Positions 24,223 to 25,773 of a stretch of DNA of 55,083 nucleotides are shown here, piece after piece. The notes under the pieces are model-generated. The model was given only the letters and a program-made list of their open reading frames with translations, had not been told where the DNA came from and searched no databases. The stretch comes from a virus. Taxonomy: Duplodnaviria; Heunggongvirae; Uroviricota; Caudoviricetes. Where the stretch lies: positions 1 through 55,083 of IMG/VR virus record IMGVR_UViG_2923307698_000002; one strand, given 5' to 3'. How positions within the stretch are numbered: the stretch's first letter is position 1; every line of letters starts with the position of its first letter. Both the position numbers and the translations under genes were made by a program.

Positions 24223-24251
24223 GAGAAAGATACCTACACAGTATCTTTCTC
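24223..24251. terminator. bidirectional hairpin between convergent Q and antisense operon
   Basis: Perfect 10-bp inverted repeat GAGAAAGATA-cctacacag-TATCTTTCTC overlapping the stop of the 143-aa gene. Confidence 0.45.
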
Positions 24252-24665
24252 AATTTGTTCAAATTTTGGTAATGGATTTGCTGTACTATTTTTTCCTATA
24301 TTGATCATTATTTCCACAGTTGCTTCTCGAGAGCGTAGCAGCTTTTGCCTAAACTCATCAGTGGTATATTTCGATGCTAATTGCTTATCAATGGTCTCGA
24401 GATCTCGGAGGCATTGCTTTCTTTTTGCTGCATCTTCTGGTGATTCAAGTCCATGACGTGCAATTACCCAGCAAAGTATATATGTCAGGATTGCCGAAAT
24501 AAGAGGTATTATTAAATATAGTAATTTCGCAAGGTTTGAATTGGCATCAGGTACGCAAAATGTTACCAGACCTGACAAAATGATCCCAAAACCGCCAGTA
24601 GAGAGGGTTGAAGTGACTGGGCTAGTTGGTTTTTTTTCATCAGACATTTGAACTGGTGCCGTCAT
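24234..24665 (-). CDS. hypothetical membrane protein (143 aa, 2 predicted TM helices)
   Basis: Two hydrophobic stretches (GGFGIILSGLVTFCV; LLYLIIPLISAILTYILCWVI) then charged helical tail; overlaps upstream gene by 26 nt. Confidence 0.5.
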   Translation of the reverse strand: MTAPVQMSDEKKPTSPVTSTLSTGGFGIILSGLVTFCVPDANSNLAKLLYLIIPLISAILTYILCWVIARHGLESPEDAAKRKQCLRDLETIDKQLASKYTTDEFRQKLLRSREATVEIMINIGKNSTANPLPKFEQIEKDTV

Positions 24666-24903
24666 TCGTTGCTTCTTCTATCAGTTGAACGATAGTTTTG
24701 CTTTTGTCTTTAGGCATGACAATAGTGATTGACCGCTTATCGTTGGTGACTTCATCGACAAAAACAAACTCAAACTTACGAACAGGGAATAACCTCCGCC
24801 ATAGTAAAGCGGATGCAGCGTATGAGAAGCGAAACAGGAGAGGTGATATCATGATCACCCCTATCCACATCGCGAGTTCTATGATCTGCTGGGTTAACAT
24901 CAT
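24640..24903 (-). CDS. hypothetical membrane protein (87 aa, N-terminal TM helix)
   Basis: ATG 24903 follows the upstream stop by 6 nt with AGGA in the gap; hydrophobic N-terminus IIELAMWIGVIMISPLLF. Confidence 0.5.
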   Translation of the reverse strand: MMLTQQIIELAMWIGVIMISPLLFRFSYAASALLWRRLFPVRKFEFVFVDEVTNDKRSITIVMPKDKSKTIVQLIEEATNDGTSSNV

Positions 24904-24909
24904 TCCTGT

Positions 24910-25773
24910 TTAAGCTGGTCGTCTACGTTTAACTTTTTTGATAGCATAACGGTTTGTTACGCCACGCGCAGTAAATGTTTTTGTTGTTTCTAAATCAACA
25001 ACATAAAGGTCCTCTTTTGAAAATTGTACTGTTGCAGCCTGAACCTGCGAAAGGAAAACATTGTCATCTAGGCTTACTGAATGTTCTTCACCAAGATAAT
25101 CAATTCGCCATCCCTTATTCCCTTCAAAGTTTACTTGAATGAATCTGACGTTAACCTCATCAATAGAAACTTCTTTTTCTAGTAAAGTACCACGTGGTAG
25201 TGGTTTGATTTCTTCAGTTTCTTCTCCTTCAAGCTTGAGAATCTCTTCTCCATTATCATCAGTAATTTTGAAGATCGGGCGCTCTTTACCATCTAGTGGT
25301 GCTCTAACTACGTTAACTAAGGCTTGTCGTATTTCGGGATCAGTCACTAACTTTGCAACAGCCTCATGACAAATAATTTCTTCTCCATCAAGTTCTAATA
25401 CTGCTTCTTGTGTGTCGACCTTTCGAGTAACAGAAATAACCTTTCTACTCCCCAATTGTCGAATCAATGCAAGAGCTGAGCCACCAGCTAATGCACCACC
25501 AGCAACAGTGAGTCCAATTGCTTTGGCGACATCGACAGCATGAGGAACTAACTCTTGCATTGAATAAATAACACCGATTGATCCAGGTGCAGCAGGAGCG
25601 GTAACCATCAATTTGACTGTTTCCTGCCCATCATTAAGATTTCGATCCGCCTTTGCAATAAGGTCAGCCATAGACCCTATTGATAAACTTAGTGTTTTTG
25701 CATCAATCTTATGCTGTGCTAATTCTTCATCTTCGGCATCATAGAAGACTTTGAAAGTGGTAGAACTATCCAA
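24910..25773 (-). CDS. hypothetical protein (287 aa) with glycine-zipper hydrophobic segment
   Basis: TTG start at 25773 after GAGG (first in-frame ATG is 34 codons in); segment AIGLTVAGGALAGGSALALI; acidic central region and basic C-tail KKVKRRRPA; first gene of antisense operon. Confidence 0.5.
   Translation of the reverse strand: MDSSTTFKVFYDAEDEELAQHKIDAKTLSLSIGSMADLIAKADRNLNDGQETVKLMVTAPAAPGSIGVIYSMQELVPHAVDVAKAIGLTVAGGALAGGSALALIRQLGSRKVISVTRKVDTQEAVLELDGEEIICHEAVAKLVTDPEIRQALVNVVRAPLDGKERPIFKITDDNGEEILKLEGEETEEIKPLPRGTLLEKEVSIDEVNVRFIQVNFEGNKGWRIDYLGEEHSVSLDDNVFLSQVQAATVQFSKEDLYVVDLETTKTFTARGVTNRYAIKKVKRRRPA

Follow-up and report, generated by a model that had tools for sequence, protein, structure and literature searches.

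The carriage by prophages of accessory ('moron') genes that encode a membrane-linked exclusion system is already well known. The working analogy used here is the RexA/RexB system of the temperate phage lambda, in which a soluble cytoplasmic protein of ~280 amino acids (aa) is accompanied by a small polytopic inner-membrane partner of ~140 aa, and in which both genes are co-transcribed with the repressor gene (cI-rexA-rexB). The SieA protein of phage P22 and the Imm protein of phage T4 are likewise small, phage-encoded inner-membrane proteins that protect the cell from other phages; they block DNA entry without killing the cell, and these systems are without a large conserved cytoplasmic component. 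Here we describe a cassette of three genes in a 55,083-nucleotide stretch of viral DNA (Caudoviricetes; IMG/VR record IMGVR_UViG_2923307698_000002, positions 1 to 55,083), which is referred to in its entirety as the window. The cassette is carried by a lambdoid prophage of Escherichia coli as a discrete insert of ~1.6 kb (24216..~25832) that lies antisense to the late operon, directly after the gene for the antiterminator Q, and it encodes a 287-aa protein followed by two small membrane proteins. The chances appear to us about even that it is a moron module encoding a phage-exclusion system that is expressed in the lysogen and follows a Rex-like logic. The three proteins have no homology to RexA/RexB, SieA or Imm, and the likeness to Rex is one of logic, not of sequence or fold. 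What is new at this locus is the obligate three-gene architecture, the middle gene of which routinely goes unannotated, together with a precise insertion slot and its empty counterpart, the wide spread of the family over phage types and phyla, and the Rex-like placement of some of its relatives.

An earlier reading of the window, made from the sequence alone and referred to below as the sequence-only reading, had drawn attention to three tightly linked minus-strand genes, and both the coordinates and the linkage were confirmed by the listing of open reading frames (ORFs) in the window. ORF1 (25773 to 24910, minus strand; 287 aa) starts at a TTG codon with a GAGG Shine-Dalgarno sequence 5 nucleotides (nt) upstream; its N-terminus, TSFKVFYDA, is kept in 29 of 29 aligned homologs, and the identical coding sequence has been called by RefSeq. 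A gap of 6 nt separates the ORF1 stop from ORF2 (24903 to 24640, minus strand; 87 aa), which hydropathy and homologs predict to be a small single-pass inner-membrane protein with an N-terminal transmembrane (TM) segment and a tail of ~50 aa. As listed, ORF2 overlaps by 26 nt with ORF3 (24665 to 24234, minus strand; 143 aa); an alternative ORF3 start at Met7 (24647), equivalent to the start used by most homologs, would give a protein of 137 aa and an overlap of 8 nt. Alignment and AlphaFold2 modelling of ORF3 point to two TM helices, a conserved RHGLESPEDA motif and a helical hairpin.

That these are not chance ORFs follows from the constancy of the arrangement. Among the 61 related loci that were found in IMG/VR with an ORF1 profile, with protein identities of 34-100%, a homolog of ORF2 follows ORF1 in 60 and a homolog of ORF3 is present in 59, always in the same order. 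A trio of ~290, 85 and 132-136 aa is found on contigs with an ORF1 homolog from Klebsiella, Serratia and soil metagenomes, Pseudomonas has the identical layout (with the middle gene uncalled in some contigs), and the arrangement in Tatumella is as in the window, the scan of GTDB genomes having returned one locus only. Conservation of ORF2 and ORF3 at the protein level is clear from the translations, with ORF2 homologs in Klebsiella, Serratia, Tatumella and Pseudomonas. ORF2 (24640-24903) is nevertheless unannotated in most RefSeq records of the locus, for example FORC_042 and NRZ95651; all three genes are annotated in one Escherichia coli variant (locus L023), where ORF2 was called by PGAP.

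The boundaries of the insert are precise. The cassette adjoins Q, as had been proposed: the stop codon of ORF3 is 18 nt away from the Q stop (24215). The GC content of the cassette is 0.396 versus 0.499 for the window. In phage cdtI, which has the same type of Q, homology to the window ends at 24214, at the Q stop codon, and restarts at 25833; the interval is filled by two other antisense genes, orf53 and orf54 (147 and 313 aa; locus L003 3402-4790), which are similar in size to the cassette genes but encode unrelated proteins and make up a second pair of uncharacterised cargo genes. Homology between the two sets was considered and rejected, given BLASTP E values of 0.15 and 6e-4, of which the second covers no more than a hydrophobic stretch of 40 residues. 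Further cargo of the Q-to-lysis slot, namely stx and porin genes, shares with orf53/orf54 and with the cassette an insertion point directly after Q. An empty site is found in E. coli strain A8, which gives one continuous match to a constructed query in which the Q 3′ end is joined directly to the sequence from 25833 onward; there DUF968-Q is followed by 222 nt and then by a small regulator gene and a methyltransferase gene, without the cassette, and homology restarts at 25824. The cassette is also rare: it is carried by 12 of 5,426 complete E. coli genomes and any detectable relative by 63, whereas parts of the flanks are present in 1,462-3,871 of the same genomes. The empty site, the unrelated cdtI cargo and this rarity show the module to be a discrete indel and bear out the view of the sequence-only reading that it is an autonomous insert in the Q-to-lysis interval; far from being universal at this position in related phages, it is missing from most phages that share the backbone, and an ORF1 homolog of the window clade was found in 0 of 50,697 phage records. 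An identical Q-cassette-methylase block is present on a 43,337-bp circular 'plasmid' (NZ_CP174001.1, locus L252, strain SZQ1) with a different nin region (ybcN, ninE, ybcO, rusA, ylcG); the element is probably a mosaic phage, excised or replicating, that was deposited as a plasmid. In Klebsiella prophages (L005-L009 4813-5658) the cassette is separated from the holin genes by a 281-aa NMT1_3 (PF16868) gene, which is oriented like the late genes and is unusual as cargo at this site.

The cassettes of Enterobacterales invariably converge on a PF06530 Q gene and stand near the lysis genes (47 of the 61 loci), an arrangement that invites a role in the life cycle of the phage itself, either in the timing of lysis, with ORF3 as an antiholin- or holin-like protein of the two-TM, class-II-holin-like topology, or in damping Q through convergent, antisense transcription. 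The wider distribution of the module makes such a role very unlikely. The trio, with its order kept, is found from Enterobacterales to Pseudomonas in accessory slots of lambdoid, P2-like and Mu-like prophages. Neither of the last two settings has a Q nearby: in the P2-like prophages of Pseudomonas type the trio is flanked by tail gene D and the regulatory region, and in Mu-like elements it precedes the lysis and terminase genes. Because the module occurs without Q in these unrelated prophages, its linkage to Q reflects modular inheritance and not a requirement, and functional dependence of the cassette on Q was rejected. Moreover, phages with matching Q and lysis genes exist without the cassette or with other cargo, the cassette is rare, and no accepted match to a holin or lysis family was obtained. 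Indeed, no holin, antiholin, spanin or other lysis family was matched by the three proteins in Pfam, PHROGs or NCBIfam, the only lysis-family signal being that of one ORF3 homolog against Phage_holin_2 (E 0.068).

The sequence-only reading had taken the module as a candidate for an uncharacterised system; ORF1 does belong to a large uncharacterised family, but one that has already been catalogued twice. ORF1 matches the PADLOC profile PDC-S42 (PDLC05015) at E 9.8e-33 over residues 3-287, and it matches the NCBIfam model NF053583, 'LAPAL motif-containing putative phage structural protein', with 207.5 bits against a cut-off of 60 over profile positions 1-292; a third match is to PHROGs phrog_3243 (unknown function; E 2.7e-61). 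PDC is a set of 145 candidate systems in PADLOC, chosen for members embedded in BREX, DISARM or type I restriction-modification loci. PDC-S42 is listed there as a single-gene candidate, whereas in the window clade the gene is accompanied by two membrane-protein genes that no library models, and the window locus, in the Q slot of a prophage, is not embedded in a BREX, DISARM or type I restriction-modification locus. The PDC-S42 profile is matched by 59 of 59 diverse family members. No Pfam domain was found in ORF1; the first ~80 profile positions of DUF7946 are weakly matched by 12 of the 59 relatives (the best inspected scoring 24.9 bits versus a cut-off of 27) and show no match to ORF1 of the window. 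An exhaustive profile search returned 2,019 clusters at 50% identity (E<=1e-3), and among the best 150 of these nearly all are ~290 aa long with one architecture. The literal LAPAL motif of NF053583 belongs to a separate clade, which has LAPALLA in its N-terminal helix (consensus MDVRxLAPALLA); the window clade has LSLSI instead, the aligned stretch of ORF1 being IDAKTLSLSIGS. The two clades are nonetheless homologous over their full length (hhalign probability 99.96%), and members of the LAPAL clade are usually single genes without a membrane partner. ORF2 and ORF3 gave no meaningful match in Pfam, PHROGs, NCBIfam or PADLOC. Across the profile-library and structure searches no characterised lysis, Rex, superinfection-exclusion or structural family was matched, in keeping with the failure of the sequence-only reading to recognise one. 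Literature searches for PDC-S42, LAPAL, DUF7946, phrog_3243 and the RefSeq accessions returned nothing, including in the supplements on PADLOC embedding and DefensePredictor.

The AlphaFold2 model of ORF1 (pLDDT 83, pTM 0.73) consists of an N-terminal alpha/beta domain, a linker at residues 82-105, a ferredoxin-like middle domain and an OB-like C-terminal domain, the topology of which gives weak matches to SSB, RPA and PriB. Residues W222, D237 and F240 of ORF1 are invariant. The ORF1 sequence found nothing in the PDB below E 0.04, no solved structure with the ORF1 fold was found, and comparison of the model with BFVD returned only uncharacterised viral proteins. It had been claimed that each of the three products contains a hydrophobic membrane segment; hydropathy supports this for ORF2, with one clear TM segment, and for ORF3, with two, and leaves ORF1 as a borderline case. 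Its Gly/Ala-rich stretch at residues 82-105 (AIGLTVAGGALAGGSALALI) has a KD19 value of 1.78 and is modelled as a low-confidence linker with no TM helix, and so ORF1 is not a convincing membrane protein, although the family as a whole keeps a moderately hydrophobic segment rich in small residues here (median KD19 1.53, 59 sequences). The model of ORF3 is of low confidence (pLDDT 62) and places helices at 23-37, 44-71, 76-97 and 103-129. Positive charges on either side of the TM segments and the long C-terminal tails suggest, by the positive-inside rule, that the soluble parts of ORF2 and ORF3 face the cytoplasm. The predicted topology of the cassette as a whole, with the ORF1 core, a single-pass ORF2 and a two-pass ORF3 with a coiled-coil tail, would thus place all soluble parts in the cytoplasm, which favours an intracellular sensor-effector over a block at the cell surface.

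This topology bears on whether the cassette is instead a classical inner-membrane superinfection-exclusion (Sie) system in the manner of SieA and Imm, in which ORF2 and ORF3, helped by ORF1, would block the entry of phage DNA without killing the cell. Small inner-membrane proteins encoded in a slot compatible with expression in the lysogen are what such a system would require, and in Listeria phage vB_LmoS_188 the homolog is part of the lysogeny module, where its neighbours are the integrase gene and a gene for a 'putative superinfection immunity protein'. We nonetheless regard classical Sie as unlikely. The component that is largest and best conserved, at 287 aa, is a cytoplasmic multi-domain protein; only a few residues link the TM helices, such that very little of ORF2 or ORF3 would be periplasmic; most family members have no membrane partner; and one relative is paired with a TIR domain. 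TIR domains typically act inside the cell. The relative in question (locus L087 2744-4668), which is 23% identical to ORF1, shares 4 nt of its gene with that of a 324-aa protein that has an N-terminal TIR domain (TIR_2, E 1e-27). This pairing was seen once and did not recur among the further LAPAL-clade loci examined, on which ground the idea of ORF1 as a general sensor for swappable effectors was rejected.

The genomic contexts of the LAPAL clade were examined at 80 viral and 80 metagenome loci. CI-type repressors, with a helix-turn-helix and Peptidase_S24, account for 16 of 74 immediate neighbours at the viral loci and for 7 of 106 at the metagenome loci. In a check for the S24 motif at the viral loci, it was present in 11 of 43 upstream same-strand neighbours versus 0 of 31 downstream ones, such that the CI-linked relatives share the repressor-then-gene arrangement of lambda cI-rexA-rexB. 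This likeness has its limit in that the relatives that follow CI are single genes; the cassette of the window, in the Q slot, is not co-transcribed with a repressor as RexAB is. Among phages of Gram-positive bacteria, a further homolog besides that of vB_LmoS_188 is ORF19 of Lactobacillus phage A2, which lies between the endolysin and integrase genes and on which papers about that phage yielded nothing. Another relative adjoins an EcoRI-type methylase gene, a GmrSD/HNH gene and an integrase gene. The remaining neighbours are generic mobile-element genes (integrases, toxin-antitoxin modules, transposases and TraT), which limits the evidence that defence neighbours can provide.

LAPAL-clade genes also recur between Mu G (Phage_tail_S) and the Mu I protease/scaffold gene, with relatives after Mu F as well. 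Taken with the NCBIfam name, these positions might suggest a virion structural or morphogenesis protein. This is most improbable for the window, where ORF1 runs against the late operon and lies 4 kb before the terminase gene, and where most phages with the same backbone lack it; in addition, relatives in phages of Gram-positive bacteria lie in the lysogeny module, and no structural-protein fold or PHROG category was matched. The antisense, accessory and rare context of the ORF1 gene speaks against the 'structural' label of NF053583, the relatives in the Mu G-I slot are ambiguous on this point, and the name is probably wrong. Mu-like phages of Pseudomonas reportedly carry anti-CRISPR genes in the Mu G-I accessory slot, and the recurrence of LAPAL-clade genes at that site would fit a counter-defence module that overcomes host immunity. 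There is only a slender chance of this, however, given that placement downstream of CI and in lysogeny modules implies expression in the lysogen and not early in infection, and that relatives were found paired with a TIR protein and with restriction genes.

A host-directed function, in lysogenic conversion or addiction (stress tolerance, a change to the envelope, or stabilisation of the prophage in the manner of a toxin-antitoxin pair), would agree with the typical moron slot, the low GC content and the presence of toxin-antitoxin modules and TraT among the neighbours of relatives. It seems to us decidedly unlikely: the soluble parts of the proteins are predicted to be cytoplasmic, no signal peptide or lipobox is evident on reading the three sequences, and library searches with the three proteins matched no toxin, antitoxin or virulence family. 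The criterion of embedding that underlies the PADLOC candidates and the placement of relatives behind CI also fit conflict between phages better. More generally, the contexts of the relatives indicate a family that is carried by temperate phages in lysogeny-associated or accessory slots for phage-phage conflict, and readings as a structural gene or a lysis gene fit these contexts less well.

We therefore favour the reading of the cassette as a moron module for phage exclusion. Counted in its favour were the nature of the insert (discrete, rare, low in GC, antisense and separated from Q by a hairpin), the recurrence of the ordered trio in accessory slots of several prophage types, the predicted cytoplasmic placement of the soluble parts, the match to PDC-S42 together with the embedding on which the PDC candidates are based, the position of relatives downstream of a CI repressor, in accessory or lysogeny slots, or beside TIR or restriction genes, and the OB-like C-terminal domain of ORF1. 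The proposal of the sequence-only reading that the module serves superinfection exclusion or abortive infection is thus plausible, on circumstantial support from family membership and the contexts of relatives. Some kind of role in defence or exclusion is rather probable; an abortive, membrane-directed mechanism with a sensor and a membrane effector, taken specifically, is possible but somewhat doubtful. Under such a mechanism a promoter of its own would drive transcription of the cassette in the direction opposite to the late operon, so that the lysogen could produce the three proteins even with the phage silent. ORF1 would detect a cytoplasmic sign of infection, possibly a nucleic acid or a phage protein bound by the OB-like domain, and would then act with or through the ORF2/ORF3 membrane pair, perhaps by way of its own glycine-rich hydrophobic segment. 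The outcome would be damage to the integrity or the energy state of the membrane and an aborted infection, whereby the lysogen, and hence the prophage, would be protected from other phages. The mostly standalone occurrence of the LAPAL clade indicates that the core protein may be self-sufficient; if so, ORF2 and ORF3 may be clade-specific anchors or regulators and not effectors. At the level of the family, we put forward tentatively, as a possibility short of a probability, that LAPAL/PDC-S42 (~2,000 clusters) is a Rex-analogous immunity family of temperate phages in Gram-negative and Gram-positive hosts, built on a cytoplasmic sensor of three domains, of a kind not seen before, that combines an OB-like domain with a membrane-active, glycine-rich segment, that in Enterobacterales and Pseudomonas it has become a system of three components through two dedicated small membrane proteins, and that it constitutes a new class of membrane-acting abortive infection. 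The Tai tail-assembly-interference system was considered as a counterpart and rejected, as its genes and slot differ.

Two elements at the ends of the cassette touch on its expression. Between the convergent stops of Q and ORF3 lies a hairpin with a 13-bp stem (24222..24252) that is terminator-like on both strands, and it is counted as part of the cassette because homology to cdtI ends at 24214. At the other end, a weak candidate promoter (TTCACG, 19 nt, TAGAAT; 25795..25825, minus strand) can be read 22 nt upstream of the ORF1 TTG codon, with the GAGG Shine-Dalgarno sequence between the two; it was not picked up by the consensus scan and is not kept among variants, and the consensus scan and the comparison of variants identified no convincing sigma-70 promoter for the cassette. 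A search of Rfam found no RNA family in the region.

If the cassette does exclude phages, a function would be provided for a very large family that is now labelled either as a single-gene defence candidate or as a 'structural protein'. The functional unit in enteric bacteria would then comprise three genes, one of which is routinely missed by annotation, and the single-gene definition in PADLOC would miss the real architecture. The junction between Q and the late promoter in lambdoid phages with a Q21-like Q, the D-gene junction of P2-like phages and the Mu G-I slot would become places in which to seek prophage-borne immunity. A Rex-like system that is unrelated in sequence to Rex would also allow comparison of the ways in which sensing in the cytoplasm is linked to damage at the membrane and, in practical terms, this cargo would affect how susceptible clinical E. 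coli, Klebsiella and Citrobacter are to therapeutic phages.

On the left flank, the antiterminator Q (23838..24215, plus strand) is assigned to PF06530 (Pfam E 4.3e-53) and matches PDB entries 6p18/6jnx (E 7e-4), which makes it a distant relative of the solved Q21. The right flank begins with a 70-bp element (25833..25903, plus strand) that is specific to this type of Q and is a candidate late promoter or Q-utilisation site. It is common to cdtI, Klebsiella, Tatumella and strain A8, all with the Q type of the window, whereas mEp460, with a different Q, matches only from 25903 onward. The element contains a palindrome, GCGGTCCGC (25846-25854), a hexamer TAGCAT (25866-25871) and a conserved block of 25 nt (25872-25896). 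In the variants compared the hexamer reads TAGCAT, TATTAT, TACTGT, TAACGT, TAATGT or TATTGT, so that TAnnnT is kept in 7 of 7, and it is a candidate -10 hexamer of the late promoter. A strong hairpin with a run of seven T residues follows (25905..25927, plus strand); it resembles an intrinsic terminator, is a candidate tR′ and lies where homology to phages with a different type of Q starts. Together, the region 25833-25927 may define the Q-utilisation site for the Q21-like family. The placement of the cassette between Q and the late promoter, as given in the sequence-only reading, is reasonable in view of the Q-type-specific flank and the Q21-like Q, with the promoter itself a candidate. Further downstream, an N6/N4 DNA methyltransferase gene (26403-27455) with no partner restriction gene heads the late region; it is preceded by a small winged-helix/TrmB-like gene (26025-26252; phrog_331), and the pair is kept in many lambdoid prophages whatever the cargo.

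Several other features of the window are recorded here. Beside the prophage, positions 1-7891 hold a satellite-like element which, by RefSeq annotation, has a major capsid protein, a small terminase, a RepA-type helicase, an Icd-like protein and its own integrase, and which could be a capsid-forming phage-inducible island. Between two integrase genes lie three genes of low GC content (0.39) at 8594-11174 (255 aa, 127 aa and a 318-aa DUF2971 protein), possibly further cargo or a defence islet at the attachment site. The early region is interrupted at 19332-20545, between a PerC-like gene and an N6-adenine methyltransferase gene, by an IS3-family transposase gene with a programmed frameshift, and in view of this insertion the prophage in the strain from which the window derives may be impaired. 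Lastly, a segment between the lysis genes and the terminase region (28694-29651) has a GC content of 0.44, with a dip to 0.35, and contains small ORFs only (28733-28972, plus strand; 29118-29294, minus strand); it may be another accessory slot.

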